Assembly: GCA_903841185.1 (NCBI GenBank)
Contig: CAIMIV010000042.1
Span: 11,319-75,318, forward strand
From: an uncultured bacterium
Lineage (GTDB): Bacteria; Patescibacteriota; Minisyncoccia; Moranbacterales; UBA2206
DNA: 64,000 nucleotides
Reading direction: 5' to 3'
Below, piece by piece: positions 10,992-58,148 of the stretch. The position numbers and the translations under genes are program-made. The first letter of the stretch is position 1. Each line of letters begins with the position of its first letter. The notes beneath the pieces were generated by a model that did not search any database, had not been told where the DNA came from, and was given only the letters and a program-made list of their open reading frames with translations.

Positions 10992-12032
10992 ATGTTACAA
11001 GCAATCATCACTTTTCTCATCATGCCCTTAGCGCCATTTTGGTTCTATGGGGATATGGCGGCTAGTTTGCAAAATGAGCCTGTTTCCAACGGGGAGGTTT
11101 TTCAGTTGGATCAGCGGGCTTCCGCGGCTTCTCTAGAGGAGACGACCTTTGATTCTGAAGCCTTGGCGAGTCACAGTATTTTCCCGGTGGATTCTGCGCT
11201 GGCCGCCGGACTGGTTCCTATAAGAAAAGCGGATGTAGCTGATCTCAAGGTTTGGGCGGGGTCCTCCGTGGCTATTGATGTGGATACCGGCACGATCATT
11301 CACTACGATGACGGTCGAAAGCGAACGCAGATTGCCTCGCTCACAAAAATGATGACAGCTGTTTTGGCAGTAGAAAATATCAAAGACCTTAACGAAGACG
11401 TGGTGATTACCAAGGAGGCCTTGAATATGGTCGGCACAGTAGTGGGTTGTCCGACGAGTGTTTTTTGCAACGGAAATCGGATGTACGTGGGGGAAAAAGT
11501 GCGGGCTATGGATCTTTTGAAAGTGATGCTGATGAACAGTGCGAATGATTCCGCTACGGCGCTGGGCATTCATATCGCCGGTACGCCCGAAAAATTTGTG
11601 GAAATGATGAACAAAAAAGCCAAAGACTTGGGATTGAAAGACACGAATTTTTGTACTCCCTCAGGACTGGAAATCGATGGCAAAGAGGATCAATGTTATT
11701 CGTCAGCCTATGACATCGCTCGCATTGCCGCCTATTCTTTGAAATATGATGTTATTTGGGATATTATGAAAATTCCGGAAGGCAAATTCTATTCTACTGA
11801 TGGAAAATATGTGCATGAACTGAAAAATACGGATATGCTATTAAATACCCTGCCCAATTGTATTGGAGGAAAGACGGGTTTTACTCCTTTGGCGGGCAAA
11901 TCGCTTATGTTGGGCACGGAAGATCCTACTGGAAAGCACAAAGTCATAGCGGTGTTGCTCAATGATGAACAACGTTGGGATGATATGCGAACCTTGGTCG
12001 GTTGGGTATTTAATAATTATAAATGGCAATAA
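10992..12032 (+). CDS. D-alanyl-D-alanine carboxypeptidase (peptidase S11)
   Basis: IASLTKMM (SxxK), SAND (SxN), GKTGFT. Confidence 0.92.
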   Translation: MLQAIITFLIMPLAPFWFYGDMAASLQNEPVSNGEVFQLDQRASAASLEETTFDSEALASHSIFPVDSALAAGLVPIRKADVADLKVWAGSSVAIDVDTGTIIHYDDGRKRTQIASLTKMMTAVLAVENIKDLNEDVVITKEALNMVGTVVGCPTSVFCNGNRMYVGEKVRAMDLLKVMLMNSANDSATALGIHIAGTPEKFVEMMNKKAKDLGLKDTNFCTPSGLEIDGKEDQCYSSAYDIARIAAYSLKYDVIWDIMKIPEGKFYSTDGKYVHELKNTDMLLNTLPNCIGGKTGFTPLAGKSLMLGTEDPTGKHKVIAVLLNDEQRWDDMRTLVGWVFNNYKWQ

Positions 12033-13185: not shown

Positions 13186-14223
13186 ATGGAGATTAAAAAA
13201 ATACAAGACATGGACATTGCCGGCAAGAATGTTATTTTGCGGGTGGATTTTAATGTGGCCATGGAAGACGGCAAGGTAAAAGAAATGTTTAAGATTATAG
13301 CGGCCAAAGAAACAATTGACTATTTGCTCAGTCGCGATTGTCAGATAGCGCTGATTACTCATCTGGGAAGGCCTGATGGCAAAGTGGATTCGAAATTTTC
13401 TCTGGATCAAATTGCTACGGAGGTGGAAATTATCCTGGGGAGAAAAGTGACTTTTGTTCCGGACTGCATTGGAGAAAAAGTGCAAGCCGCCCTGGAAAAT
13501 TTGGAGGAAGGCGTGCTGCTGCTGGAAAATGTCAGATTTTATGCGGGTGATGAAACCAATGACGCCGCCTTTGCCGGCCAACTGGCGGAGCATTTTGAGG
13601 TGTTTGTGCAGGATGCCTTTAGTGTTTGTCATCGCGACCAGGCTTCAGTGACGGGCATCGCCAAGGTCTTGCCGAGCTGTGCCGGCTTTCGCTTGCTGGA
13701 AGAACTCCATGGCATGACCATTATCAAAGATCATCCCGTGCATCCGGCGGTGGCCATTATCGGTGGCGCTAAGATTGAAACCAAACTTCCGGTGATTAAA
13801 TTTTTTGAAGAAAAATATGATTATATTTTGGTGGGCGGGAAAATTGCCAACGAAGCCTTGGATCAGAAAATTGAATTTTCCGAGAAAGTAATTTTGCCGG
13901 TGGATTTTGTGGATGACCGTCTAGACATCGGACCCAAGACAGTGGAAAAATTCAAAGAGATTATTGCTACGGCCAAGACCATTGCTTGGAACGGGCCGAC
14001 CGGAAAATTTGAAGAGGAAAAATATGCCGTCAGTTCCAATGCGATTTTGGAAGCGGTGATTGACAGCGGGGCTTTTGTTTTGGTGGGCGGAGGAGAAACG
14101 CTGGAAATTTTGGAGAAAAATATCGCCATGGATAAAATCTCCTTTGTTTCCACCGGTGGCGGGGCGATGCTGGACTATTTGTCCGGAGCGGCGATGCCGG
14201 GCATTGATATTTTGCAAAAATAG
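13186..14223 (+). CDS. pgk: Phosphoglycerate kinase, shortened (345 aa)
   Basis: RVDFNV, THLGRP, LLENVRF, GGAK, WNGPTG, GGGET, STGGGA. Confidence 0.93.
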   Translation: MEIKKIQDMDIAGKNVILRVDFNVAMEDGKVKEMFKIIAAKETIDYLLSRDCQIALITHLGRPDGKVDSKFSLDQIATEVEIILGRKVTFVPDCIGEKVQAALENLEEGVLLLENVRFYAGDETNDAAFAGQLAEHFEVFVQDAFSVCHRDQASVTGIAKVLPSCAGFRLLEELHGMTIIKDHPVHPAVAIIGGAKIETKLPVIKFFEEKYDYILVGGKIANEALDQKIEFSEKVILPVDFVDDRLDIGPKTVEKFKEIIATAKTIAWNGPTGKFEEEKYAVSSNAILEAVIDSGAFVLVGGGETLEILEKNIAMDKISFVSTGGGAMLDYLSGAAMPGIDILQK

Positions 14224-21674: not shown

Positions 21675-21887
21675 ATGGCAGTAAAAAAAGCAGCAGCTAA
21701 AAAAGTTGCGAAAAAGGTTGTAAAAAAAGTAGCAGCTAAAAAAGTTGTGAAAAAGGTTGTAAAAAAAGTAGCAGCTAAAAAAGTTGTGAAAAAAGTAGCA
21801 GCTAAGAAAGTTGCTAAGAAGGTTGTGAAAAAAGCTGTAAAAAAAGCAGCTCCAAAGAAAAAAGTTGTAGCAAAAAAGAAGAAATAA
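21675..21887 (+). CDS. Histone H1-like Lys/Ala/Val-rich nucleoid protein
   Basis: Repeats KKVAAKKVVKKVV; SD-like gaaaggaaggtgaa; promoter and terminator present. Confidence 0.8.
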   Translation: MAVKKAAAKKVAKKVVKKVAAKKVVKKVVKKVAAKKVVKKVAAKKVAKKVVKKAVKKAAPKKKVVAKKKK

Positions 21888-22024: not shown

Positions 22025-22945
22025 TTAAACCGTGATTTGACAGAGGCGCCATTTTTGTGCCAGGTCTTTATGAAATGCGATGTGCGCTTGCGGAAGACGC
22101 TTTCGGATTAGCACCGGCAGTTGTCTTTTTTGCTCCGGACTGATCTCCATGTAACATGTTACATGTACCAAGGCATGAGTATTTTTTAGAGTTTCCATTT
22201 GCTGCAGCAGCTCCTCATAGTGTGCCAGTCCGGCAGCGGCGCTGTAGAGAGCGGATCGCGGTTCATATTTTTGCACGGTGGGGTGGGTGGCGGCATAGAT
22301 TTCGTCGGAGAGATAGGGGAGGTTGGCCAAGATTATCATCTTGGAATTTTCAATGTTCAATTTACAATTTTCAATTAGTGTTTCAAGAAGATTTCCTTGT
22401 AAGAATTTTATTTTTTTGGCCACGCCGTGGGTCTGGGCGTTTTGCTGTGCAACCGTTAGCGCTGCATTAGAAATATCCACGGCGAAGAATTTTGAATTTT
22501 GTCCGCCAGCTGGCGGATTGAATTTCGAATCAATGATTAAATTTTTTAAGATAGAAATAATAATATTGCCCGACCCAGTTCCCACGTCTACAATCATTTG
22601 ATGTTTGATGTTTGATGTTTGATGTTTGCTGGATATTTCCTGCAAGGCCATCTCGACCATCAATTCGGTCTCAGGACGGGGGATGAGCGTATCTGGGGTC
22701 ACAGCGAATGACAGGCCAAAAAACTCCCTGTAGCCCAGAATATAGGCCAAGGGCTCATCGCTCATTCTTCGCGTAATTTTTAAGTCTAAATTTTTAATTT
22801 TTAATGATGGAAGGACATATTCCGGGTAGGTCAGGACGAACTCGCGCGACTTTCCAATTTCTGCCGCAATCAGCACATCCAAGTCCAAGCGGTCAATTTT
22901 CCCGGCATATTTTTTCTGCAGGTCCGCGATGGTGGTCTTTGTCAT
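22025..22945 (-). CDS. prmC: Release factor glutamine methyltransferase carrying several in-frame repeat insertions
   Basis: EPLAYILG..EFFG, LIPRPETE, DVGTGSG, ANLPY, EPRSAL. Confidence 0.92.
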   Translation of the reverse strand: MTKTTIADLQKKYAGKIDRLDLDVLIAAEIGKSREFVLTYPEYVLPSLKIKNLDLKITRRMSDEPLAYILGYREFFGLSFAVTPDTLIPRPETELMVEMALQEISSKHQTSNIKHQMIVDVGTGSGNIIISILKNLIIDSKFNPPAGGQNSKFFAVDISNAALTVAQQNAQTHGVAKKIKFLQGNLLETLIENCKLNIENSKMIILANLPYLSDEIYAATHPTVQKYEPRSALYSAAAGLAHYEELLQQMETLKNTHALVHVTCYMEISPEQKRQLPVLIRKRLPQAHIAFHKDLAQKWRLCQITV

Positions 22946-22954
22946 AATATTTTT

Positions 22955-23815
22955 TTAATCCAGTGGGCTTTTGATAGTCTGCAAATTAGTATTGGCCACC
23001 CTGGTGTAGATCTGTGTCGTTTCAAGGCGTGCATGACCCAGCAACTCTTGGATATAGCGAATGCTCGTGCCGGCTTCTAAAAGGTGAGTGGCGAAAGAAT
23101 GGCGCAAGCTGTGGCAAGAAACTTTTTTAGCAATGCCGGCCAGCTCAACTGCTTTTTTAACTATTTTTTCAGCACTTTCAGCAGTCAGATGTCCTTGTCC
23201 ACCAGCTCCAGTAAATAAATAGTCATTTGGCTTCTTCAGGGTTAATTGTTTTTGTAATGTTGGAATGAGTTTTTCAGATAACAGTGTGCAACGATCTTTT
23301 CCTCCCTTACCTTGGCGAACCATAATCATTTTTCTATCCAAATCAAAATCGCACATTCGGATTTTGATTGTCTCACTAACGCGCAGACCTGCCGAATACA
23401 TTAGTGATATCAAAAAATTATGTTTGGGGTTAGTTGTTTTCTCGAGCATTCGTTCAATCTCTTCTTTACTAAGGATTGTCGGCAGATAGTTGGTTTTTTT
23501 GGCACCTTTTATATCAAAGAAAAATTTGCGTTTCAATATTTGACGGTAATAGAATTTAAGGGCATTAAGTGCAACATTCAGGGTGGAATTGGCACAGTCC
23601 TTGTCTTTCAAAGAGATTAGGTATTGGCGAATGTCATCATTGGTTACTAGTTTGGGGCTTTTATCAGTAAATTGCAAAAAAAGCTTATTATAAAGTACAT
23701 AAGACTTTATAGTTTTTGGGCTAAAACCCCTGATTCTCAACTCTTGTTCTAAATTATACAGAGGGTCTCGTTCTTGAGTTGTTGTTTTTCCATCCATATG
23801 ATAGTATGTGTTCAT
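22955..23815 (-). CDS. IntI-like tyrosine recombinase lacking the integron-specific insertion
   Basis: IRGFSPKTIKSY, STLNVALNALKFYY, LPTILS, GLRVSE, GKGGKDR, HSLRHSFATHLLE, QELLGH, TTQIYT, C-terminal SPLD; 286 aa. Confidence 0.9.
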   Translation of the reverse strand: MNTYYHMDGKTTTQERDPLYNLEQELRIRGFSPKTIKSYVLYNKLFLQFTDKSPKLVTNDDIRQYLISLKDKDCANSTLNVALNALKFYYRQILKRKFFFDIKGAKKTNYLPTILSKEEIERMLEKTTNPKHNFLISLMYSAGLRVSETIKIRMCDFDLDRKMIMVRQGKGGKDRCTLLSEKLIPTLQKQLTLKKPNDYLFTGAGGQGHLTAESAEKIVKKAVELAGIAKKVSCHSLRHSFATHLLEAGTSIRYIQELLGHARLETTQIYTRVANTNLQTIKSPLD

Positions 23816-23879
23816 ATGATAGTTATGATTACATCAAAATCATAGCATAAACCATTGCTCAAGCCAATAACTTAGCAGG

Positions 23880-23900
23880 TACGAATAAAACTAGTTATCG
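23880..23900 (+). other. attI-like recombination site, crossover GTT at 23894
   Basis: taaaactaGTT about 80 bp upstream of the divergent integrase, resembling the attI1 core TAAAACAAAGTT; the first cassette starts here. Confidence 0.65.
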
Positions 23901-23917
23901 GAAATAATTTATCACCT

Positions 23918-24163
23918 ATGAATGAAAAATACAAAAAAATAGCCTTATCAGCATATATTCTTACAGCTGCCTATTTATCGACCGTATATAATTTCATTGG
24001 TCTCGTGGGGGCTGATTTTATCTTGGCGATTTTGGTTGCGATTTTACTAAATAGCTTTTTAGCATATCTGATATGGTCGAGTGATAAAACGCGAAAGTAT
24101 TCGGCTATTATTTTGACGATATTATTGTTGTTGGCCGCTCTTCATTTGTTGCCAGTATTTTAA
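23918..24163 (+). CDS. Cassette 1 cargo: 81-aa three-TM membrane protein
   Basis: Hydrophobic ORF filling the space between the cassette's inverted repeats. Confidence 0.7.
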   Translation: MNEKYKKIALSAYILTAAYLSTVYNFIGLVGADFILAILVAILLNSFLAYLIWSSDKTRKYSAIILTILLLLAALHLLPVF

Positions 24164-24183
24164 AGGTGGTGATAAATTACATC

Positions 24184-24381
24184 CGATAACAAAGAATATC
24201 TGGTTCAAAAAATTTGCCACAACTAAAACTAAAAGGAGGGCAAATTTTTCTCTCCCAAATCCCGCACTTTTCCGTTTTGTTGTAATTTAGAGTATAATGA
24301 GATGAATAAATAAATAAGAATATTAAGGTTTTGTGCCTAAAAGCCAAAGTGCAGGACTTCAGATATTCTTAAACGTTAAAC
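24184..24381. repeat. attC-like site 1
   Basis: cgatAAC-a-aagaatatctg...cagatattctt-aaac-GTTaaac; near-identical copies at 24884 and 29393. Confidence 0.85.
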
Positions 24382-24441
24382 GAAATTTTGTTCAAAAATA
24401 TTTTTTCATTTTTTATTGAGCCTTTTTGAAATTTTTTTAGA

Positions 24442-24483
24442 AAAAAGAAAGCCCCAGGTGGAATTGAATTTTCCACGAGGGGC
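24442..24483 (-). terminator. Terminator of the reverse-oriented cassette 2 gene
   Basis: gcccc..gtggaa..ttccac..ggggc hairpin followed by a T tract on the minus strand. Confidence 0.6.
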
Positions 24484-24506
24484 TTAGTTGTTGGCGTGTA
24501 ATGCGC

Positions 24507-24749
24507 TTATAAGTAACAAACGGGTCCGTTCTCACCTTTTTTTGTGTAAATTAGTGAAACCATTTGTGCAATAAGGCAGACCAGAAAAAATTCATACCTG
24601 CTTCCATTGATTTTTGGAATGTCAAATACCACGCTTGTGATTGCACTTAACATTCCAATGGTCCCCATAATTACGCCGATCCAGGCAAAAAACGTGTTAT
24701 TTTTATGCCAAATTTCTTTCATTATGACATCCTCCTTTTCGAGTTTCAT
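24507..24749 (-). CDS. Cassette 2 cargo: small two-TM protein in reverse orientation
   Basis: Two hydrophobic helices; own promoter and terminator; alternative start at 24722 after aaggagg. Confidence 0.7.
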   Translation of the reverse strand: MKLEKEDVIMKEIWHKNNTFFAWIGVIMGTIGMLSAITSVVFDIPKINGSRYEFFLVCLIAQMVSLIYTKKGENGPVCYL

Positions 24750-24790
24750 GGTTTAATGTACTGTTTAACACCAAAATTAGCGTTCAAAGT

Positions 24791-24819
24791 AGCATAGCAG
24801 AAAACCAGTAACCCGTCAA
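24791..24819 (-). promoter_or_regulatory. sigma70 promoter inside cassette 2
   Basis: Minus strand TTGACG-17 nt-TATGCT with TG extension. Confidence 0.7.
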
Positions 24820-24883
24820 GCCCACGGCCAAAAAATTTCAAAAAGGCTCTTTTAATAAGGAATATATTTTTGAACAAAACATC

Positions 24884-25083
24884 GTTTAACAAAGAATATC
24901 TGGTTCAAAAAATTTGCCGCAGTTAAAAACTAAAAGGAGGGCAAATTTTTCTCTCCCAAATCCAGCACTTTTCCGTTTTGCTGTAATTTAGAGTATAATG
25001 AGATTAACAAAGTAAATAGGAATATCAAGGTTTTGTGCATAAAAACCAAAGTGCAGGACTTCAGATATTCTTAAACGTTAAGT
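24884..25083. repeat. attC-like site 2
   Basis: gtttAAC (RYYYAAC)...GTTaagt (GTTRRRY); same body as site 1. Confidence 0.88.
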
Positions 25084-25215
25084 GAAATAAATCTTTATCT
25101 TTGTGGAAATTTCGAGCCAGGTTGCGTTGAACCAAGACGAAAATTTGATTTTTTTAAAAGTTTTTCCGCCACAGGCGGGATTATTTGGGGCTATTTTATT
25201 TTTAAATATAAAAAT

Positions 25216-26001
25216 ATGGAAAAAATTAACAAAAGCACAACACTGTTATTAAGTTCTTTTGCATTACTTCTGGTGCTAATCATTGCTGGGGTCATATCTT
25301 TCAAAAAAGAAATATCAACCTTAAAAAAAACACAGCAGTCATTATTACAAGAGAATGCGAAACTAAAGCAGGTCACAATTACTGATTCTCCTCAAAAAGC
25401 TCCCGTTGCTGAAATAACGGTTGGCAGTCCATGCGATGTGAATAATGGAAATATTTTAAATTCTAAGGGTCTGCAATGTTATTTTTATGATAGCTTAGAT
25501 TCAAGTGGAAATGAAATATTTCCTCGACACGGGGTATGGATTAAGCCTGATTTACGAAATATGCAAATTGATTCAAAGCTATATGAAATATATTTTAAGT
25601 CATGGAAAAAATATGTAAGTCCGGATAAAACTATTAGTTTTTCTTACCCACAAAACTGGAAAGTTGATGAGTCAAGTTGGAAGGATGGTAACTTATCTAT
25701 ACAATCAAGTGACTATTCACCGATATCAATTTCTAAGATTGAAAATAATGCTATTACAATAGAGCAGAGAATTAGTGATGATGAAAATGATAGACCATTT
25801 GAGAGAACTATTATCGAATTAAATGGCGTTAGTGGCACGAGACTCGACATCGCCCCAAAAGATAATTTAAGTGACCAAGAGCAAATAAAATTCTATTTTC
25901 AAAAGGATAAATATTACGTTGAATTAAGTGTTGCAAAAGCTGGATATGCTGCGTATGATTTTCCGACAGAATATTTATTGAGTACGATAAAAATAAAATA
26001 G
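25216..26001 (+). CDS. Cassette 3 cargo: exported protein with N-terminal TM and a PsbP-like C-terminal domain
   Basis: TM then coiled coil; WKKYVSPDKTISFSYPQNWKV and LLSTIK are typical of PsbP-like domains. Confidence 0.7.
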   Translation: MEKINKSTTLLLSSFALLLVLIIAGVISFKKEISTLKKTQQSLLQENAKLKQVTITDSPQKAPVAEITVGSPCDVNNGNILNSKGLQCYFYDSLDSSGNEIFPRHGVWIKPDLRNMQIDSKLYEIYFKSWKKYVSPDKTISFSYPQNWKVDESSWKDGNLSIQSSDYSPISISKIENNAITIEQRISDDENDRPFERTIIELNGVSGTRLDIAPKDNLSDQEQIKFYFQKDKYYVELSVAKAGYAAYDFPTEYLLSTIKIK

Positions 26002-26114
26002 CCCCAAATAATTGTTTTGCCATTCTGCAAAACAAAAACTTTTAAAAAAAATCAAATTTTCTATTAGCATGGATAAAGTTTGTGCTAATAAAAATGAAGA
26101 TAAAAATTTACATC

Positions 26115-26294
26115 ACTTAACACGGCATATGCGGTTCAAAAATTTTGCGCTATTATATTTCAAGGAGTGCAAAATTTCCTCTCCCAAATTGCGCTGACGG
26201 AATGGCAAGTTTAGTGATATAATCAAGATAAGCGAAATTAACAAAATAATCAATCAATCCACGGCGCAACTTCGCATGTGCCGATACGTTAGAC
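26115..26294. repeat. attC-like site 3: divergent sequence, same architecture
   Basis: acttAAC-a-cggcatatgcg...cgcatgtgccg-atac-GTTagac; keeps ggttcaaaaa, aaggag, ctctcccaaat, tataat, acttc. Confidence 0.82.
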
Positions 26295-26435
26295 GAAATA
26301 AATTTATTTTATTTTTTAAATTCGCTTTTTATAATAAGAAAAAATAAGTTTTTTTATCTATTTATATAGGGGTAAAAAGGTGTTTTCTCCGCTGAGGCTG
26401 CGAAAACGGATTTATTAATATAATTTGTTTATATT

Positions 26436-28172
26436 ATGCAAAAAAATAACGAGATTGATTCATTAAAATTCAGCTGGGGTGATTTGGCGCGAGCGATTTT
26501 ATATTTATTTGGGGAAAAGAAAAATGAATATCTTTTTTCTTTGTTTGTCGTGGCTGTATTTAATTTATACGTAATTGTGCCGCCTTTGATAATTGGAAAA
26601 GTGATTGATTTTTTCAGCACATACAAATCAGGTGAATCGTTGAATACTTTTTATTTTTATGTGATTTTTCTGGGAATTTTCATTGGCGCCGTGCATTATT
26701 TCAATCTCTCCGCAATCCAGAAATTTCTACGTCTTAGCAACGAGTTAGTTTATAAGATTCGCGTCCAGGGCTTTGAGAAGTTATTGGAACAATCACTGTC
26801 CGAGCATGGTGAAGAAAATACAGGCGCCAAAAATCAAAAGATTCAAAATGGCGTGACGGCTTTTAATTTGTTTTCCGAAGCCTTGAATGACAGAATACTT
26901 CCCTCAATAGCGACGCTAGTCGGTGTTTTTGGCGTATTTTTGTATTTGAATTTTATCTATAATATTATTCTGATCGCTTATTTAATTGGCTTTGTCTACA
27001 TCCTTAGATTTTTCAGAAAGAAATTCGTAATGCTTCATTATGAAAAGAGTTTAGCTATGGAAAAATCAAGTGGTACTTATATTGAAGGTTTGAGCAATAT
27101 TACCACGATTAAGGCTAGTGGTGCAGAAAAAAATTTCAAAAGATCAGTCAGCAAAAACGAAGAGGCACGTAATTTTTTTGATCAAGAGATTTTGCGTGTC
27201 CGTGTAAATCAGTGGAAGTTATTTAACATTTATAACGGTATTTATACGGGAATATTTTTGTTTGTTATTGGTAGGGATGTAATCGCTGGCGTGGTTTCGA
27301 TCGGATCAATTGCAATTTTGTTGGCTTATTTAGAGAAAATAACCGACGCATCTGGCAAAGTGCTTGGTATGTATGGCTATTTAATTGACAAAAGAACATC
27401 TATCGCCCGCATGATGACTATTTTTTGGGCTGATAACAATATTTTAACTGGCGAAAAAGAATTCCCAGTCGATTGGCAGGAGATAAAATTAAGCAATGCG
27501 AGTTATGCTTATAAAAATGAAAAAAACACTAAAACTAATATTAACGGTGTCAATCTGGTGATTCAAAAAAACCAAAAAGTTGGCATCATTGGCACAACTG
27601 GCAGTGGCAAATCAACGCTTGTAAAATTATTGCTTGGCCTATACCCGCTTGATAAAGGAGAATACAAAATCGGCACAACTAATTTTTATGACATCAAGCA
27701 TGATGAAATATTCAAGCACATAGCAATTGTCTTACAAGAGTCGGAAATGTTCAATATTTCACTCAAAGAAAATATTGCGTTAAGTGAAAAAATTGATGAA
27801 GGGCGTTTATTGCACGCGATCAACATTGCTCAATTGGATGAGGTGGTGAAAAGCTTACCTAATGGCTTTGAAACTTTAATCGGGGAAAAGGGATACCATC
27901 TTTCTGGCGGCGAACGCCAACGCGTCGGCATTGCTCGAGCGATTTATAAAGATCCTGAAATTATGATTTTTGACGAAGCTACTTCATCACTTGATGTGCA
28001 AACAGAAAAGAAAATTCAAAAAGCACTTTTGGACAATCTTCAGCAAAAAACTATTATCATAGTCGCACATCGAACGAATACCCTGGAAAAAGTAGATGTT
28101 ATCTATAAAGTGGAAGGTGGAAAAATTGTTCAACAAGGAAGTTATGAGGAGTTTTTTGGTATTCACCAATGA
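26436..28172 (+). CDS. Cassette 4 cargo: ABC exporter (permease plus ATPase)
   Basis: GTTGSGKS, LSGGERQR, IFDEATS, VAHR. Confidence 0.92.
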   Translation: MQKNNEIDSLKFSWGDLARAILYLFGEKKNEYLFSLFVVAVFNLYVIVPPLIIGKVIDFFSTYKSGESLNTFYFYVIFLGIFIGAVHYFNLSAIQKFLRLSNELVYKIRVQGFEKLLEQSLSEHGEENTGAKNQKIQNGVTAFNLFSEALNDRILPSIATLVGVFGVFLYLNFIYNIILIAYLIGFVYILRFFRKKFVMLHYEKSLAMEKSSGTYIEGLSNITTIKASGAEKNFKRSVSKNEEARNFFDQEILRVRVNQWKLFNIYNGIYTGIFLFVIGRDVIAGVVSIGSIAILLAYLEKITDASGKVLGMYGYLIDKRTSIARMMTIFWADNNILTGEKEFPVDWQEIKLSNASYAYKNEKNTKTNINGVNLVIQKNQKVGIIGTTGSGKSTLVKLLLGLYPLDKGEYKIGTTNFYDIKHDEIFKHIAIVLQESEMFNISLKENIALSEKIDEGRLLHAINIAQLDEVVKSLPNGFETLIGEKGYHLSGGERQRVGIARAIYKDPEIMIFDEATSSLDVQTEKKIQKALLDNLQQKTIIIVAHRTNTLEKVDVIYKVEGGKIVQQGSYEEFFGIHQ

Positions 28173-28232
28173 CCTCAAACATGATAAAATAAAGATAAGT
28201 TTCACTGCCTATTTTAATAAAATACAAAATTC

Positions 28233-29255
28233 ATGTCCAAAAACAATCATAAAATTAGCATAAAAGACGAATTGACCGAATTTCTGCTTTACACAGCCCC
28301 AAGTGGCAAGGTAAAAGTAGAAATTTACTTTCATGACGAAAATATTTGGCTTACCCAAGACAAAATGGCCAAATTATTTGGCGTGCAACAACCAGCTATT
28401 GCCAAACACTTGAAGAATATTTTTGAAAGCGGTGAATTGCTGGAAAATTCAGTTCATTCCATTTTGGAATATACTGCCAGCGATGGCAAAAAGTATCAAA
28501 CCAAATTTTATAATCTTGACGCCATAATTTCCGTTGGATATCGGGTAAATTCAGCTCAAGCTACTCAATTTCGCATCTGGGCAACAGAAAGGCTTAAAGA
28601 GTACATCATAAAAGGTTTCACCATAGATGATGAGAGATTGAAGAATGGAAGATATTTTGACAAAGATTATTTTCTCGAACTTTTGGAAAGAGTCCGTTCA
28701 ATTCGTGCTAGTGAGCGAAAAATTTATCAGCAAATTACGGATATTTTTGCTGAATGTAGTATGGATTACAGTCCAACATCAGAAATTGCTAAAAATTTTT
28801 ATGCAATGATTCAAAATAAATTCCATTTTGCTATTACTGGCAAAACTGCAGCTGAGATTATTTATGAGACGGCTGACAAGCAAAAACCATTTATGGGACT
28901 TAAGACTTGGAAAAATTCACCAAATGGCAGAATTATCAAATCCGACACAGTTATCGCTAAAAATTATCTTAACGAGGATAAAATAAAAAAACTGGAAAGA
29001 GGCATTGTCGGCTATTTTGATTACATTGAAAGATTGATTGAGAATCACACCGCTCTCACGATGGAAAAGTTGGCGGAATCTGTAAATAACTTTTTGGAGT
29101 TTAACAAGTACGAAGTGCTTGAAGGAAAGGGCACGATTTCTCATGCCCAAGCAGAACAAAAAGCGTTTCAAGAATATGACGAATATAATAAGACGCAGGC
29201 AATAGAATCTGATTTTGACAAACTTGTAAAATCTTTACCGACTGGAGAAAAATAA
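28233..29255 (+). CDS. Cassette 4 cargo: RhuM-family putative DNA-binding protein
   Basis: WLTQDKMAKLF, YNLDAIISVGYRVNS..ATQFRIWAT, IRASER, QNKFHFAITGKTAAE. Confidence 0.9.
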   Translation: MSKNNHKISIKDELTEFLLYTAPSGKVKVEIYFHDENIWLTQDKMAKLFGVQQPAIAKHLKNIFESGELLENSVHSILEYTASDGKKYQTKFYNLDAIISVGYRVNSAQATQFRIWATERLKEYIIKGFTIDDERLKNGRYFDKDYFLELLERVRSIRASERKIYQQITDIFAECSMDYSPTSEIAKNFYAMIQNKFHFAITGKTAAEIIYETADKQKPFMGLKTWKNSPNGRIIKSDTVIAKNYLNEDKIKKLERGIVGYFDYIERLIENHTALTMEKLAESVNNFLEFNKYEVLEGKGTISHAQAEQKAFQEYDEYNKTQAIESDFDKLVKSLPTGEK

Positions 29256-29392
29256 GGAGTTTTGAATTTTAGGCATTCCCGCCAGAGGCGGACAGGCATC
29301 CCTGACCCCTCTGCCCAAAATCCAAAACAAAAAAACTTATTTAATCTATTTAGAATAAAAAGCGAATTTAAAAAAGAAAATAAATTTACATC

Positions 29393-29610
29393 GTCTAACA
29401 AAGAATATCTGGTTCAAAAAATTTGCCGCAGTTAAAAATACAAGGAGGGCAAATTTTTTTCTCCCCTGCCTACCGGCAGGCAGGCAAATCCCGCACTTTT
29501 CCATTTTGTCGTAATTTAGGGTATAATAGGATTAATAAATAAATAGGAATATTAAGGTTTTATGCATAAAAACCAAAGTGCAGGACTTCAGATATTCTTA
29601 AACGTTAGGT
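29393..29610. repeat. attC-like site 4, with a 20-bp palindrome inserted at 29465-29484
   Basis: gtctAAC...GTTaggt; body matches sites 1 and 2 apart from cctgcctaccggcaggcagg. Confidence 0.88.
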
Positions 29611-29652
29611 GTAATTTATTTAAAATCCCTTAAAAAATAAATTAAGAAAAAT

Positions 29653-29955
29653 ATGACAACAATAAATGAGTTTCAAGAAATGTGTGCCAAGGTGGTGGGG
29701 GAGATTGACGCAAAATATGGCATTGCTCGTGACCCGCATTTTAGCTTCACACAATTTATGGAAGAAGTTGGTGAACTGGCGAAAGAGATAAATAAGCCGA
29801 AGTTGCGCAACAAAGAAATGGATCGGGAAAATTTGAACGGTGAATTTGCCGACGTCATCTTGCAGTTTTTCACACTTGCCAGTATGCTAGAAGTAGATGT
29901 GGAAAAGGCAGTTGAAGCTAAAATGGCGATACTGAAAGAGCGACATGATTTATAA
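29653..29955 (+). CDS. MazG-like nucleotide pyrophosphohydrolase, probable last cassette
   Basis: EEVGELAKE and GEFADV motifs. Confidence 0.85.
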   Translation: MTTINEFQEMCAKVVGEIDAKYGIARDPHFSFTQFMEEVGELAKEINKPKLRNKEMDRENLNGEFADVILQFFTLASMLEVDVEKAVEAKMAILKERHDL

Positions 29956-38014: not shown

Positions 38015-38173
38015 ATCCCAGCACTAATTCCGATATAGTTTGTAGGTAATATGGGGATGCGTGTGCGAATTCGCCTCCGGCTAGGTTGAAATTTAATAAA
38101 TTAATTCAAGTGCGAATTAGTGCGGGATGCTTATTTTTATAGCTACTCGTTCCTCGCAGATAAAAATAGCATG
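38015..38173 (+). ncRNA. Structured ~160-nt intergenic element, copy A (before hypA)
   Basis: Shares atccc(a)gca..aattc, attcgcc..cggcta, gtgcgggatgc and tagctactcgt.cctcgca with the copies at 56853 and 57567. Confidence 0.65.
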
Positions 38174-38446
38174 CATGATTTTTTTCTGGCCAAACAAATA
38201 TTGGAAAAAATTAGAGAGATAGTCATGGAAAAGAAGTTGGAAAGAATTTCCAAGGTGTCGCTGGAAATTGGCAGTATTGTTTTGGCGCATGACAATCTGC
38301 CGGAACACCTGGAGGATATTAATATTGAAAATCTGGTATTCGGATTGAAAAGTTTTGCGAAAGACACCGCGCTGGCGCAAGTGGAATTTGATGTCCAAAA
38401 AGTGGCGGGAGAAAGTTGGAAAATAACCAGTATTGAGGTAGAATAA
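38171..38446 (+). CDS. hypA: HypA-like nickel metallochaperone lacking the Zn-binding Cys motifs
   Basis: MHDFFLAKQI, V.LEIG, TALAQVEF, GE..ITSIEVE; no Cys residues. Confidence 0.75.
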   Translation: MHDFFLAKQILEKIREIVMEKKLERISKVSLEIGSIVLAHDNLPEHLEDINIENLVFGLKSFAKDTALAQVEFDVQKVAGESWKITSIEVE

Positions 38447-49500: not shown

Positions 49501-52500
49501 GGAATATTGGTGGCAATCTAGCCGATCAAACTGATTTGGTGTCAGCCTTGGGAGCCAAATTGAGTCTCACAGGCGGCACGATGAGTGGTATCTTGAATTT
49601 ACCCAGCAATGGTTTGATAGTCGGCACTACTCAGATAGTCGCCCTTAACGGAGCGGTGGGCATTGGCACAGCGACCCCGTCAGCCAGTTATCAATTGACC
49701 GTCAATGGCGATGTCAATGTGACTAACGGCCTGTTGCGTTTTTCCGGCACGCAGATCGGACTTAATAATTTGAAAAATGTCGCAGTCGGTTCGCCCGCGG
49801 TCAATCAAGTACTGGCGTTCAATGGCACCAATTGGGTCAATACCACCTTAAGCAGTGTTTCCGCGGGCAATGTCGTGTCTTTCTATTTGCAAACTCAAGC
49901 TGGTGACATTTCACCTTTCAAGCAATTGCAAGCTACTCCGGGCGCGGGTTCTGAGGTGGATGTGCATGCCACAGTCAGCAACAACCTGAGCAGTCCAACT
50001 TTGCTGGAAGAATATATCTCTTCCGCCGCGGGACTTGGTGGCAATCAAATTGATGGCGGGGAGTGGGAATTTGACACCTTCGGTTTCGTTTCCGATGCAA
50101 GCGGCGATTCGGAAATTCAAATCGATGTTTTTACGCGAGCTACCAACGGCACCGAGACCTATCTATTCACCGCCAATACCGGATCAATCACCGGCACTAC
50201 CGCTGATGCACAAGCGATGGCAGTCAATTCGACTCAATCAGCTTTCAGCATCGCACCCAGTGACCGTTTAGTGGTCAAATATTCGGCTAAAACGGATTTG
50301 CTCAGCGGAACAACAATCCATCTTTTGCATAACGGTCAAGATCATTATTCACATTTTCATACGCCAATGCTCACGCGCCATAATGATATGGCCGGTTTGC
50401 AAGGCGGAACCAATCAGCAATATTATCATCTAACATCTTCTGAATACACCGGGACAGGGACAGGGACTTTTGTGCGGCAATCTTCACCGGCTTTCACCGG
50501 CACAACGACCGGTATCACCGCAACTATGGTGGGGTTGGGGAATGTGCCGAATTTGGCGTTCAGCGGTTCCAATACGGGCGACAATGCCGTCAATTCTCTG
50601 TATAGTGGCTTGATTACTAATGCCACGCACACAGGTGACGCGACGGGCGCAAGCGCTTTGACCGTGGTGGGCATCAACGGCACGCAATTGTCAGCATTAG
50701 CGACCGGCATTTTGAAAAACACCACCACCACTGGCGTGCCGAGTATCGCCGTGGCGGGAGATTTTCCGACTTTGAATCAAAACACCTCCGGCACCGCCGC
50801 CGGACTTTCTGCTATATTGGTATCTACCAGTGGCGGTTCTGGCATTAACAATTCCGGCACTTTGACTTGGGGCACAGGTGGCACCTTGGGAACAAATGCT
50901 TTCACGAGCACAGCCTATGCGCCATTGGCTTCACCGACATTTACGGGAGACATAAATTTCCCTGGTTCTGGGGTTTGGAATTCGAGTGGCAACGTGGGGA
51001 TTGGGACGATTTCGCCAAACGCACTACTAGATATAAATCATATTGGTGCAATTGCTATTCCCGGCTTTAATATTGCGGCAACAGATGCAAACAATGCCTA
51101 TCAATTAAAAATCTTGGGCCACACAGGAGGGGTCTCTCATACACAAATTGTAACGGACAATTCCAATAGCAGATTAACAGTAATGGCAGGAGCGCAAAAT
51201 GACTTTGCTCCACGCATGTTCTTTATTGGTGCGCAAGATGCAACAACATCCTTGCGAGGTTGGGGAACATTTGATTATGGTTCAAATTTATATGATTTAG
51301 ATACTGCAGAGTTCCAAGTAAGACAGGTCTCCACTGGTGGGTTCACTACCATGTTCAGATCAGTTGGAAAAGCTGGGTCATTATTTCCTTCTGGAACAGT
51401 TGGAATAGGAAGTTCTGTCATATCTGTCGCCAAATTTTCGGTAGAAAATACCGGAACTACGGATTCTTTTTTAGTTAACGATGAGGCGAGTGACACAACG
51501 CCGTTTGTAATTAATACAGATGGTAACGTTGGTATTGGGAGGACAAGTCCGGGCTATAAATTAGATATTTCTACGCCAGGAAATTCTGATGCACAATTAC
51601 ATATTAATTCATCAAATCCTTATAGTGATACGGGAGGGTATATTAGTAGCGGAGCGGCGGCTAATCTAGGTTTGGCAGGAGGAACCGCACTTAGTGGTGG
51701 GGCATGGAAAGTTAAAACAACTACCGGAGCTTCACTTATAAATTTGGGTTCAGGCGCAATGACTTTTTATACAAATGACACAAGTGCTGCTACTCCCGGA
51801 GATATCTTGAGCCTGTCAGCCCGTATGAAAATAACCAATACCGGCAACGTCGGCATCGGGGCGACGAGTCCTCTATACAAATTTGATGTATCAAATGACG
51901 GAGTAGCGAAATCCTTGCTCCACTTTTCTCAGAGCGGAACGGACGTTGGTGGATGGTTAACATCTGTGGGTGACGGTAATTTTTATATGTCATCTGGCAT
52001 GGAATATGATGCGGGAGCTGGTGGCTGGATTCAAAAATCATCAAACGGAGTTGGCAATATCATTGGCGGTGATTCGCCAGGACTGTCATTTTACACGACA
52101 AGCGGAACGGCAGTTGGATCTGTTGCAACCCTTGCTGTACGTATGAGAATAGATACGAGTGGTAACGTCGGGATTGGAACGACGGCTCCATCAACTAATT
52201 TTGAAGTTTATAGTCCCACAGTGACAAATGGTATTGTTATCCCTTTGAGAGTTAATGGAAGAATTGGAAATACGAGCGGTCAAGATGGAGTGGGAATGGA
52301 TTTTAATGGCATTTGGGATTCTTCCGGATCTGCTTTTACATTGGGTAGAATTGTCGGCAGAGAATATGGTGGTTATAAAGGAGGTTTATCTTTTTTGGTT
52401 AACAATAATGGAGCTACTGCTCCCAATTCTGCAGTAATGTCCGAGGCAATGAGAATGGATAATGTCGGTAACGTGGGGATTGGGACATCGAGTCCTGTGG

Positions 52501-55500
52501 CGAGGTTAGATGTTTCGCCAACAGTTATTACCACCACTGACCTGAAGGGGATGAATAGTGGATTGGTCTATAACGGTGGATCTACTATGACGAATTATTA
52601 CGGCCATTACATTGCCACCCCATCCGGAACAGGAATCATTACAAATAAATATGCCTTAGTAACTGAAGCTGGAGCTGGCAACGTTGGCATCGGCACGACG
52701 AGTCCAACAAACATCTTGTCTCTCGGCAACGGGGCAGCGCAAAAATTTTGGATTGAAAACTCAGTCAGTGGAACTGTCGGTCGAGCCTTGACTGTCGCTG
52801 CTGGCGGGACTGTCGCTGGCGGGACTGACATTGCGGGTGGCAATCTGATTTTGCAATCCGGTCTTGGCACGGGCACTGGCGCTAGTGCAATTTCTTTTCA
52901 AACCGGCACAACTCTCACAACCGGCACAACTTTGCAGACAATGTCTACAAAGATGACGATTTTGGGGAATGGGAATGTGGGGATTGGAACGACGAGCCCG
53001 GCAACTTTAGCGCATGTGAATCTTTCATCGGCTGCGGTGGGGACAGCGTTATATTCTTCTAATTCTGCGCTGACCCTTTCTAATCAGGATAATTCCGTGT
53101 CAGCAGATTACGTGGTTGCTGATGGAACTGCTACGCCAGGGTATCGAGGAGTTATAAGAGGTATCAGGGCGCGTGGAACTTTGGCATCTCCCACTGTGCC
53201 AGTATTAAATGATATTGTCTTTTCAGTTTTGGGTGGTATTTATGATGGTGCATCGGTTTTAAATACGGCTGCCGTAGACCTTAAAGTTGATGGTACTGTG
53301 TCTTCTGGTGTAGCTCCGCAGAGAATATCTTTTAGTACAAAGACCGGCGGGAGTGGTGGATTTGTTGAAAGGCTGACAATAAAAAATGACGGACTTATCG
53401 GGATTGGCACGACGAGCCCGGCGAGTTCTTTGAATATTGCATCATCCTTAGTGAGCACTGCTAATTATGGAACTTTGTCGGTGGGATCTTCTCCATGGGA
53501 CGGATCAACTAGTGGTAAGTTTGTTGGAGGCAGTAGTGGCACCCTAATTGCGGTTAATGCTCCTAATGTTGCAGGACTTGGATTGATTGATCTCCAATCA
53601 TTCGGCGTCAGTAGATTCAGAGTGGATTCAACGTCTGGTGTTACGATTGGAAATGCCAGTGCGGGTGCACAAAACGGTACTCACATAAGTGACCTGATGA
53701 TTTACCCTACTAGCGCTATCAATCTGACGGCCGAAGGCAGTCCAAACCTGATTATGAATGCTAATTCGTTTACAATTACTGGTGGGTATGCTACGCAAAG
53801 ATTTAATTTATTTAACCAATCAACTATCACAGCTGTTTCAGCTTTAAACATTTCAACCGAAGCGGATACATTGAATATAGCCGGCGCACCAATTTCCGCT
53901 GGTTCGGCCACGATCGCCAAATCAATTGGACTGCGGATTTCCGCCGGGACCTCGGTCGCCGCGGGGGTGACGAACGCGTACGGTTTGTATGTTGATGCTC
54001 CAACTGGTGCGAGTAATAATTATGCAGCGGTATTTAATACCGGCAATGTGGGGATTGGGACGACGAGTCCCGGATATAAATTATCAGTGGCGACACCAGG
54101 AGTGACGGCTTCACAGATGCAGATTAATTCAGCCAATCCGGCGGATGATACGGGGATGTATCTGACTTCAGCAGCGTCTGGCAATGGATTTGTTTCGGCA
54201 GGGGCTGCTTATAATGGCAGCGCTTGGGTCGCGAAGTCTGCGACCGCTTGGTCATTTGGTGGCGGAGCGTCTGGTATCAGTTGGTCTTATGATACTGGAT
54301 TAACTGCAGGCAATACTTTTACACAATCGACACGATTGAAAATTGGCACGACAGGACTGATTAGTATAGGGACTGGCAATTTATTAGCTGGGCTGGACGT
54401 TCAAAATAGCATTACTGCTACTTCGGCAGTGGCTTATGGAACAAGGCTTCAGCAAACATTAACCGCGGCGGCTAACAATGATGCGCTTGATGCCGTTTAT
54501 ATTAATCCAACTTTTACAGATGGGGCGAATACAGGCGTGACACATAACGGATTAATCGTAGTAAGTGGCAATGTCGGTATCGGGACAACGACGCCGGCCT
54601 ATACACTGGATGTCAAAGCCGCCGGCACTGGCGTCATTGCTCGCTTCAATAATAATAACAGCACCGGATGCACAGTTGCTGATGGCGGAACGATCACTTG
54701 CACTTCCGATGTCAGGCTAAAAAAGAACATCAATGATTTGAATTATGGATTGAACGAAATCATGTCTTTGCGTCCGGTTGACTATAATTGGAGATATCAA
54801 AATGACAATGGCCAAAAATATCTAGGTTTCATCGCTCAAGAAGTGGAACAACTGTTGCCACAGTTAATTATGACAGACGCTAACGGCTACAAAGAACTTA
54901 ACACAATCGGGCTTATTCCAATCCTGACTAAATCCGTGCAAGAGCAGCAGACTGAAATTGGTGTGCAGACGCAATCAATTGCGTCTCTACAGATCAAGAC
55001 TGATAGCAACATCACCACTCTGACGGATCTGCAAAAATCAGTTGACACGCAATTGAATGTGGTGGGCAAGAGTTTGAATGTGATTAACACGCAGATCAGC
55101 GCCCAGGCGCAATCGATTGCGTCGCTGCAAGGCAAATTGGATGATCAGGAAACGAGATTGAAAGATCAAGAAGCTTTGTCAATTACTTTGCAAGCACAAA
55201 TTGCCAAATTGCAAGAACTGGTTAATCCGGATGCACTGGCATTGCTAAGCAGCAAACTGGATGCTATCTCAGAATTTATTACGATTTCTGACGGAAAATT
55301 TGATTTACTGCAAGGCACATTGAAAGCTAGTGGTGTGGAGACGGGCAAATTGGTGATTTCTGTTTCTGCGGGATCTGAAAACAACACTATCGGTGAAGCG
55401 GTTATTTGTCCGGCCGGTAAAAAAATAGACTCGACTATCCTCGCGGGAGGGACTGATTATAACAAATGTATTCTGGATGACGCAAGTTCTGATGGCAAGA

Positions 55501-56852: not shown

Positions 56853-57010
56853 GGCATCCCGCAACGAATTCCATAATAGTTTTGTGTTATGGAAAAATTT
56901 GTTTGCAGATTCGCCTGCGGCTACACTAAATTATAAAAATTAAAGATTAATTAGCGAATTCGTGCGGGACGCTCATATTTGTAGCTGCTCGTACCTCGCA
57001 AACAAATATG
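56853..57010 (+). ncRNA. Structured ~160-nt intergenic element, copy B (before nusG)
   Basis: Closely similar to 57567-57725; final hairpin catatttgt..acaaatATG. Confidence 0.7.
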
Positions 57011-57553
57011 GCGAAACAAACCCAACATCACGGAAGAGCGTGGTATGTGATTCATACCTACAGTGGCTATGAAGACAATGTGGCGCGCAACCTGAAACAA
57101 AGAATCGAATCGATGGATATGCAGGATTTGATTTTTGATGTCATGGTTCCGATTGAAAAGAAAATCAAGATCAAAGCGGGCAAGCGCACGGTGATTGAAG
57201 AGAAGATCTATCCCGGCTATGTGCTAGTGGAGATGATTGTCACCGATGCTTCCTGGTACGTGGTGCGAAACACGCCGAACGTCACTGGATTTATCGGACT
57301 CGGTACTACTCCAACCCCGGTGGATACAGCTGAAATTGAGATGTTGAAGAAACGCATGGGTGTGTCTGAACCGAAATATAAGATTGACGTGGCCGTGGGC
57401 GATTCCATCAAAGTGGTGGATGGACCCTTCAAGGATTTTGATGCCAAGGTGGATGAGGTGGATGAGGCTAAGGGCAGAGTGAAAGTTCTGGTGTCTATCT
57501 TCGGTAGAGAAACCCCGGTGGAACTAGACTTTTTACAGATACATAAATTATAA
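57008..57553 (+). CDS. nusG: Transcription factor NusG
   Basis: WYVIHTYSGYE, YPGYVLVEM, KOW DGPF, IFGRETPVEL. Confidence 0.97.
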   Translation: MAKQTQHHGRAWYVIHTYSGYEDNVARNLKQRIESMDMQDLIFDVMVPIEKKIKIKAGKRTVIEEKIYPGYVLVEMIVTDASWYVVRNTPNVTGFIGLGTTPTPVDTAEIEMLKKRMGVSEPKYKIDVAVGDSIKVVDGPFKDFDAKVDEVDEAKGRVKVLVSIFGRETPVELDFLQIHKL

Positions 57554-57566
57554 GAAATGTAGGTGT

Positions 57567-57725
57567 GGCGTCCCGCAAAGAATTCCAAAATAGCTTCTAT
57601 ATTGTGGATAAATTTGTTTGCGAATTCGCCTTACGGCTACGTGCAGTTTTAACTAAAAAAATTAATTAGCGAATTCGTGCGGGATGCTCATATTTGTAGC
57701 TACTCGTACCTCGCAGACAAATATG
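57567..57725 (+). ncRNA. Structured ~160-nt intergenic element, copy C (before rplK)
   Basis: Same motifs and pairings as copies A and B. Confidence 0.7.
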
Positions 57726-58148
57726 GCAAAAAAGATTAAAACAGTTATTAAGTTACAAATCGGAGCCGGGAAAGCAAATCCAGCGCCTCCAGTTGGTCCG
57801 GCTTTGGGTCAACATGGTTTGAATATTCAAGAATTTTGCACCAAATTTAATGAAGCTACCAAGGCTCAAATGGGAGACATTATCCCGGCAGAAATCACAG
57901 TCTATGAGGATCGCACTTTCTCATTTGTCCTAAAAACTTCTCCGGCTTCTGACTTGTTGCGCAAAGCAGCTGGCGTACCGAAAGGAGCTGGCAACCCATT
58001 GAAAGATAAGGTAGGGAAAATCAGTGAAGCGCAACTGCGAGAAATTGCCGAAAAGAAGTTGACTGATTTGAACGCCAATGATGTAGAAGCCGCCATGAAG
58101 ATCATTGCTGGCACAGCGAGATCTATGGGAATCAAAATCGAAGGATAG
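57723..58148 (+). CDS. rplK: 50S ribosomal protein L11
   Basis: [22 protein letters not shown]; ATG at 57723. Confidence 0.97.

Follow-up and report, generated by a model that had tools for sequence, protein, structure and literature searches.

Branched attC-like repeats next to a short tyrosine recombinase are probable single-stranded-DNA recombination sites of an integron-like cassette array in an uncultured Moranbacterales bacterium

The 64,000-nt stretch analysed here, hereafter the window (positions 11,319 to 75,318 of the forward strand of contig CAIMIV010000042.1, assembly GCA_903841185.1), comes from an uncultured bacterium of the order Moranbacterales in the phylum Patescibacteriota and contains an array of gene cassettes bounded by branched, attC-like repeats. 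A gene for a tyrosine recombinase of 286 amino acids (22955..23815, reverse strand) is oriented divergently from the array, and next to it lies a 28-bp, dif-like site of 11-6-11 layout on the forward strand (the attI-like site, 23878..23905), with a putative crossover at G|TT (23894/23895). Four cassette bodies with inverted-repeat ends follow on the forward strand: cassette 1 (23894..24190), with 23-nt ends around an 81-amino-acid membrane-type open reading frame (ORF; 23918-24163); cassette 2 (24375..24890), with 63-nt ends and an ORF on the reverse strand (24507-24749); cassette 3 (25077..26121), with 25-nt ends, more pairing beyond them and a 261-amino-acid ORF that has a weak PsbP-like match (25216-26001); and cassette 4 (26288..29399; 3.1 kb), whose 68-nt ends enclose an ABC transporter gene (26436-28172) and a RhuM-family gene (28233-29255). 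A possible remnant of a fifth cassette (29604..29955, forward strand), degenerate at its start, holds a MazG-like ORF (29653-29955), with no matching end or site found downstream of it (best 18 of 31). We consider it likely that the repeats serve an integron-like cassette array as recombination sites in single-stranded DNA, folding from the bottom strand and being used by the neighbouring short tyrosine recombinase.

Counted from AAC to GTT, and assigned to the reverse strand, the four sites occupy 24188..24377 (site 1, 190 nt), 24888..25079 (site 2, 192 nt), 26119..26290 (site 3, 172 nt) and 29397..29606 (site 4, 210 nt). Site 1 is an attC-like site with a three-way junction, for which a bottom-strand fold is predicted; site 2 is nearly identical to it, site 3 has divergent stems that pair in the same way, and site 4, of the site-1 family, carries a 20-nt hairpin inserted in the junction (~29465-29484). 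An earlier note on this DNA had described four such sites, with the outer 11-bp stem, the hairpin and the inner stem all altered in site 3, a spacer of 1 nt versus 4 nt beside AAC/GTT and a TATAAT in each site (24293, 24994, 26218 and 29522), and all of this is found in the window as described. Because the four copies amount to two sequence types, the window alone shows neither covariation nor invariance.

Sites of this kind recur well beyond the window. A pattern for the left half of the site has matches in 87 of 301 genomes of the order (its reversed control had none), in at least 140 metagenome stretches and in two viral contigs, and a pattern for short variants only was found in 23 of 201 genomes of the phylum. 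From 209 loci together with the window we extracted 219 sites, 190 of them distinct, with 189 distinct cores, demanding at least 9 of 11 outer-stem pairs and near-exact junction motifs (at most one mismatch per motif); window site 4 is absent from this set owing to its insertion. Family sites are 60-200 nt long and modular, consisting of an outer stem (P1), a short or long hairpin (P2), a CCCAAAT junction and a third arm (P3) that spans 7 to 128 nt, with a spacer of 1 versus 4 nt in 126 of the 190 distinct sites and of 1 versus 3 nt in the other 64. In an alignment of 20 diverse sites out of 49, drawn from one length class, 20 of 36 pairs co-vary and 115 cells are altered on both sides, a level that none of 500 shuffles reached (20 of 36 pairs) and that compares with 4-8 pairs in slid controls; the percentage of paired outer-stem positions is biased by the selection for at least 9 of 11 pairs, and the pair-type changes are unbiased. 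The covariation of the site stems is real, and the earlier description of the sites as attC-like, branched and co-varying stands.

The accompanying list of invariant parts did not survive the comparison. The ctcccaaat element is broken in site 4 by the inserted hairpin, and what had been called a tt bulge is two T that pair with the AA of CCCAAAT; among the related cores one of these positions is A-T throughout (189 of 189) and its neighbour is A-T in 176 and T-A in 12, invariance figures that are upper bounds, since the search demanded outer-stem pairing and near-exact motifs and the loci were collected by patterns that fix some bases. Among the same 189 cores, GGTTCAAAAA is present in 22, AAGGAG in 30, CTCCCAAAT in 31 and TATAAT in 59. 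AAGGAG was also considered as a ribosome-binding site and rejected, since no ORF follows it and it recurs in just those 30 cores.

Smaller elements were seen in and around the sites. An A+T-rich loop ending in AAGGA recurs in the window (24233, 24857, 24934, 26162, 29254 and 29442), its copies lying in P2, in P3 arms of middle length and in that part of the cassette-end repeats that stays unpaired, with 11 copies on the top strand versus 2 on the bottom strand of 23878-29630; it is possibly a protein-binding motif on the folded strand. For a pseudoknot between the AAGGA loop motif and the CCC linker, which was also considered, the variation in both elements is too small or too loose to be informative. 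Short G+C-rich hairpins, which look like a small mobile repeat, lie in site 4 (29465-29484), in the 3′ end of cassette 4 (29277-29295, missing from 11 related ends) and at 25164-25180 and 22501-22517, and a 7-codon insert in the integrase genes of three relatives may be of the same kind. Two decayed half-sites lie outside the array in the same genome (G000:C39 ~1295-1453 and C53 ~13329-13372).

Several features distinguish the two strands of these sites. All 189 cores, found with at most one mismatch per motif, have at the junction an A-C opposition on the top strand, equivalent to a G-T wobble on the bottom strand; the same is seen beside the AAC/GTT box and in the outer arm formed by the cassette ends (AAAT/ATGT in 26 of 30 long-repeat cassettes, CAAT/CTGT in 2 more). 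Folding energy is lower on the bottom strand in 167 of 189 cores, and the AAC/GTT box pairs with a computed probability of 0.35-0.42 on the bottom strand versus 0.02-0.03 on the top. Short third arms are closed by GNA triloops on the bottom strand in 50 of 69 cases (7.0 in shuffles) and on the top strand in 0 of 69, while loops of the RNA types GNRA and UUCG occur on the top strand of one of the 69; GCGNAGC is described as an unusually stable, DNA-favoured mini-hairpin whose related RNA hairpin is far weaker (PMC13037366). Of 8 sites recovered from 20 loci of other lineages, 6 favour the bottom strand and 1 the top. As modelled, the sites most likely fold as single-stranded bottom-strand DNA rather than as RNA.

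Cassette ends carry a second layer of pairing. In the window, each of the four cassette starts is complementary to its own cassette's end (over 23, 63, 25 and 68 nt) and not to the ends of the other cassettes. Across related loci, the four variable bases that follow GTT agree with the end of the same segment in 36 of 64 cases and with the left side of the same site in 8 of 64; of the 36 matching segments, 30 have pairing of 20 nt or more (median 27), compared with 11% and 14% in two cross-pair controls. Nearly all end repeats retain a 2x2 mismatch at positions 10-11, and junctions of the kind that a circle would contain are computed to fold 9-37 kcal/mol lower than the array context. The earlier note's idea of self-pairing cassette ends thus holds in part: the ends do pair, but outside the sites, and with a mismatch pattern that favours the strand opposite the proposed RNA. 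As a separate observation, other lineages (L212-L228) have GGGGC, CCCTC or similar sequences left of the AAC box instead of ACATC, and their cassettes pair at the ends over only 8-9 nt; long paired cassette ends may be a trait of some lineages.

The paired ends form what we call shell families, in which the same ends enclose unrelated genes elsewhere. The shell of cassette 2 surrounds five non-homologous reverse-strand ORFs, four of them with a facing promoter-like element (TTGAC, 17 nt, TG-extended) that in the window lies in the 3′ end of cassette 2 (24791..24819, reverse strand; shared by 4 of the 5 cassettes that have these ends). Twelve cassettes (from 14 rows, after one duplicate and one mismatched row had been dropped) have the shell of cassette 4; 5 of them hold restriction-modification genes and the others transporters, Fic or unknown genes. 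Compared with its closest relative, identity of this shell stops ~15 nt before the start codon and returns at the stop codon; in one locus (L008) the shell comes first behind attI, and different site cores follow it in different genomes. No relative of the cassette 1 shell was found. Separately, the RhuM-family gene of cassette 4 (28233-29255) encodes a protein 94% identical to that of L192:6870-7889, which sits in a related shell in another genome with different neighbours.

The recombinase has the catalytic residues R145, K170, H235, R238, H261 and Y270 and is without the IntI-specific insertion. Its score suffices for NF040815, the XerA-like NCBIfam model, and is too low for TIGR02249, the integron-integrase model (228.9 bits versus a cut-off of 265), its closest relatives are in Moranbacteria records, and its best match in both sequence and fold, the latter predicted from an alignment (predicted local distance difference test, pLDDT, 82.7), is VchIntIA (2A3V). 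Compared with VchIntIA it lacks ~42 residues, with residues 185-240 of 2A3V corresponding to 195-208 here. Among 30 homologues (268-306 amino acids) the six catalytic residues are invariant, and one homologue carries a 25-amino-acid insert at the place of the IntI insertion. In a tree of 33 recombinases (two Xer-like rows were dropped because of stops caused by wrong coordinates, and L239 counts as an array recombinase by its label alone) the array recombinases split from host Xer (98/95); the same tree leaves them unresolved with respect to IntI and to the short integrases of IS91 type, and neither shows nor rejects a position intermediate between Xer and IntI. As an observation of its own, a metagenome contig (L093:77-1714) holds a cassette with a complete family site and 22-nt paired ends ~35 nt ahead of a full-length canonical integron integrase (326 amino acids, TIGR02249 469 bits), a single locus that may reflect exchange between classical integrons and the system described here.

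By eye, the arms of the attI-like site match Escherichia coli dif (row in PMC2731167) at 9 of 11 and 8 of 11 positions and its centre at 0 of 6. An AG|TT site occurs at the same place in 28 of 32 integrase loci of candidate phyla radiation (CPR) type with upstream DNA, a survey that leaves out two loci without such DNA and five more distant ones, and every site detected in the surveyed integrase loci lies downstream and on the other strand from the integrase. Among close relatives the left part of attI is the same and the sequence diverges directly past GTT, in the first cassette, the right arm of the site changing with that cassette, and because of this divergence the crossover was placed within GTT. 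By the GC-skew test on its contig the attI-like site does not lie at a replication terminus: each of the 12 bins along the 113-kb contig has positive skew, with no switch (the genome comprises 71 contigs).

Together, the recombinase, the attI-like site and the fold allow a mechanism to be proposed. The folded bottom strand would copy the 11-6-11 layout of attI: the outer arm, TT-N4-G-A-A/T-A/G-T, would be supplied by the cassette ends; a 6-bp centre would contain the G-T wobble and a 2-3 nt bulge; and the inner arm would cross the junction, joining the invariant part of P1 to the first pairs of P3; P2 would loop out of it, taking the place of the extrahelical bases in classical attC sites. Cleavage of bottom strands by the recombinase would occur at AA|C, and the cassette would enter at G|TT through a single strand exchange with attI and subsequent replication. 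Single exchange and replication, the route described for integron insertion (PMC8946536), is proposed here because the centres of attI and of the folded site share only the base beside the cut. In an excised circle the cassette ends would meet and lengthen the outer arm by 20-70 bp, making the circle a better substrate than the array site and tilting the balance from excision towards insertion. The positive GC skew points to the bottom strand as the leading-strand template, an orientation given for large stable arrays (PMC5371416). With less than even confidence, we further propose that cassettes form from reusable shells that bring their own expression signals and in which genes are swapped near start and stop codons, the shell passing through a circular single-stranded form that would keep its ends complementary, and the site, a three-way DNA junction, being handled without an IntI domain.

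A number of observations weigh against single-strand recombination by this enzyme. By alignment, the recombinase is without the ~42 residues used by VchIntIA, in which the missing residues contact extrahelical bases (PMC3053210), and the host genome has a second Xer-like gene whose product could act on the dif-like site. In the long class, which includes the window sites, whole-site energy favours the bottom strand in only 17 of 33; site 3 is more stable on the top strand (-24.3 versus -19.0), and with RNA parameters the top strand is preferred in sites 1-3. Wobbles at variable positions are mixed (bottom versus top 24 to 11 in P1, 116 to 89 in P2 and 29 to 43 in P3), GNRA/UUCG loops occur in short P2 arms on both strands (13 bottom and 6 top of 48), and the GNA loop test covered short variants, not the long sites of the window. 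As for the cassette ends, 28 of 64 segments mismatch at the four bases, some of them spanning missed sites. Related sequences are, moreover, non-independent. With these points taken into account, the single-stranded-DNA interpretation is likely in our judgement.

The earlier note had also placed a promoter and a terminator-like hairpin in every site. TATAAT is found in P3 of 34 of 189 cores (4.9 in shuffles), distributed as 0 of 106 short, 18 of 50 medium and 16 of 33 long third arms, a good promoter match is confined to the site-3 family and few others, and a sigma-70 promoter was found in 0 of 8 sites from other lineages; a promoter in every site is thereby not supported. What can still be weighed is whether the third arm of long variants contains a genuine forward promoter through which each cassette would drive the next. 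The best candidate (26194..26223, forward strand), in the long third arm of site 3, has CTGACG, an 18-nt spacing and a TG-extended TATAAT, and the -35-like CTGACG with TG-extended TATAAT is shared by 5 of 6 members of the site-3 family, exceeding all 100 shuffles for each. TGnTATAAT is in use upstream of host genes (52 sense, 6 antisense and 5 shuffled occurrences, of 784), site 4 passes a simple promoter scan too, and in long third arms TATAAT stands on the top strand in 16 of 33 versus 1 on the bottom. Against this, matches in sites 1 and 2 are weak or borderline (p 0.07-0.2), most of 11 long-arm clusters do not exceed shuffles, and TATAAT is also enriched in P2 loops (27 of 189) and on the reverse strand (16 of 189), so that A+T-rich loops alone could yield it; for Vibrio cassettes, in-silico promoter calls are reported to have failed to predict activity (PMC11014356). 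We regard a promoter as an optional part of the site; only for long variants, of which site 3 is an example, is it plausible, and even there rather unlikely.

As for termination, in all 189 cores the 8 nt past hairpin P2 contain at most 4 T, and the 7 terminator-like matches all lie outside the sites, so the proposed terminator is not supported; nor do classical attC sites end transcription, as has been shown (PMC8876359). Outside the sites, a weak candidate for an array promoter of Pc-like type lies within the integrase gene (23774..23802, forward strand; 9 of 12 consensus positions), in a region that does not exceed shuffles overall (28 versus 25.1), and a candidate integrase promoter with a TG extension lies at 23839..23867 (reverse strand). 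Expression signals would sit mainly in cassette ends and optionally in a long third arm. Of the sequencing runs listed as holding this DNA, four are DNA runs from one study and none is an RNA run, which carries no information about expression.

The most far-reaching proposal of the earlier note, that at every site one transcript ends and the following one begins and that the resulting cassette RNA refolds into the recombination stem as an RNA-level route to cassettes, is very improbable on the present evidence. In its favour, all four window sites contain TATAAT and the motif is enriched in the third arm, RNA parameters prefer the top strand as noted above, cassette 2 is bordered by arms that pair at 11 of 11 positions, the host genome encodes four reverse transcriptases, and an RNA-based model of cassette formation has been published for group IIC-attC introns (PMC3053210). 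The missing T-runs and terminators, the short sites devoid of third-arm TATAAT and the termination-free classical attC sites argue against it. The stem itself would seldom be rebuilt: a right arm and the next left arm pair at 11, 6 and 5 of 11 positions in the window (the last two for cassettes 3 and 4), and completely in no more than 11 of 64 segments of related loci. The proposed RNA would omit the conserved CCCAAAT junction, because this lies past the proposed stop and before the proposed start, and an RNA running from the start in P3 to the stop in P2 would also miss the 5′ side of P3. Cassettes, moreover, hold 120-150 nt of non-coding ends, reverse-strand ORFs with a promoter-like element and up to five genes, and the reverse transcriptases are on other contigs (G000:C66, C52, C32 and C18; L230-L233), three of the four adjoining pairs of 66-128 nt repeats with 85-88% identity, as in diversity-generating retroelements, which these three resemble. 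Nothing in the data calls for the RNA route. A role of the repeats as structured RNAs or RNA regulatory elements of the top strand, with which top-strand RNA fold z-scores of -3.0 to -5.4 are consistent, is more doubtful still: an Rfam scan returned no family at the gathering score (two chance-level matches, E 2.4 and 3.3), the invariant A-C oppositions are unpaired on the top strand, and the loops read TNC on the top strand and GNA on the bottom.

Two further explanations concern DNA. Ordinary double-stranded Xer-type recombination of the dif-module kind, possibly by the host Xer and with another role for the fold, would account for the dif-like arms of the attI-like site, for a recombinase that passes the XerA-like model and fails the IntI model and for the second Xer-like gene; yet a double-stranded site offers one arm at the crossover and takes on the 11-6-11 layout only upon folding, its centre differs from that of attI, its stems co-vary, and the array recombinases group apart from host Xer, which together make this explanation improbable. 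Cassette-end repeats might instead be ends of transposons or of miniature inverted-repeat transposable elements, the units being non-autonomous transposons that insert at sites, and the reuse of 23-68 nt ends around unrelated genes is what such elements would show. However, neither a transposase nor a target duplication was noticed in the array, the repeats start exactly at GTT and stop at AAC with the fixed 2x2 mismatch, and in the cassettes examined they lie next to a folded site or attI, so that we give this origin hardly any credence. Single-strand recombination of bottom-strand folds by the array's own recombinase is the interpretation that we retain.

Read in this way, the array resembles sedentary chromosomal integrons (VchIntIA and the VCR, Vibrio cholerae repeats) in its divergent tyrosine recombinase, its docking site and its AAC...GTT fold-back sites bounding cassettes, in the putative G|TT crossover and bottom-strand fold, in the near-identical sites of one array and in a bottom strand that would be the leading-strand template (PMC5371416). 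It differs from them in a recombinase without the IntI insertion, in an attI that is a simple 11-6-11 dif-like site, in cassette ends that pair over 20-70 nt and in cassettes of up to several kb with several genes. Unlike classical attC, the sites have a continuous 11-bp stem, a three-way junction, a spacer of 1 versus 3-4 nt, no unpaired central spacer, a junction of conserved sequence and a hairpin instead of single extrahelical bases, and they reach 170-210 nt as against 57-141 bp (PMC5371416).

Phage CTX, an integrative mobile element exploiting Xer (IMEX), offers a parallel, in that ordinary Xer recombines its folded single strand with dif: ~150 nt of folded strand rebuild an 11-6-11 site, with a single exchange followed by replication and no IntI domain (PMC5357621). 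CTX, however, uses host XerC/D and cannot excise, whereas the array has its own recombinase and every inserted cassette retains a foldable site. One-recombinase Xer/dif systems such as archaeal XerA, and dif modules, share the 11-6-11 site, the NF040815 match and a good sequence match to XerA; here, by contrast, the partner site is a fold, the centres mismatch, the contig lacks a GC-skew switch and a separate host Xer-like gene exists. Short integrases associated with IS91 on plasmids (NF040815) are of the same length class and ~40% identical, but form a branch separate from the array recombinases; of four records examined, two adjoin IS91 transposases, one is without a transposase beside it and one is unannotated. 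In sum, the system as interpreted works like an integron, yet its recombinase has no IntI insertion, a feature regarded as necessary for integron activity (PMC3053210), and its sites are without classical attC anatomy; as these are two defining traits, we do not class it among the integrons. A 2021 review that lists integron-bearing phyla does not include this group (PMC8618304). Our literature searches, whose coverage excluded subscription journals and bioRxiv supplements, found no description of the system, for which this window supplies a check on the RNA reading, evidence from DNA mini-hairpins and candidate promoters borne by shells.

Elsewhere in the window, a 70-amino-acid lysine/alanine-rich histone-like ORF lies just past prmC (21675-21887). 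Units of 28-47 nt are repeated in a G+C-richer stretch at 49659-54607 (families D3, D5 and D9), which is probably a long repeat protein, and a 75-nt repeat unrelated to the array is present in three copies (38100-38174, 56942-57016 and 57657-57731; family D7).

The origin of integron cassettes is, to our knowledge, an open question, and shells around restriction-modification, transporter and unknown genes would give a direct handle on cassette formation. If cassettes do form from reusable shells, then the histories of shell, cargo and site core would differ from one another, and the making of cassettes would be open to direct observation. If folded sites are indeed handled without an IntI domain, the system would show which parts of single-strand recombination need that domain. 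Reused shells would also bear on the variation of defence genes in very small genomes.

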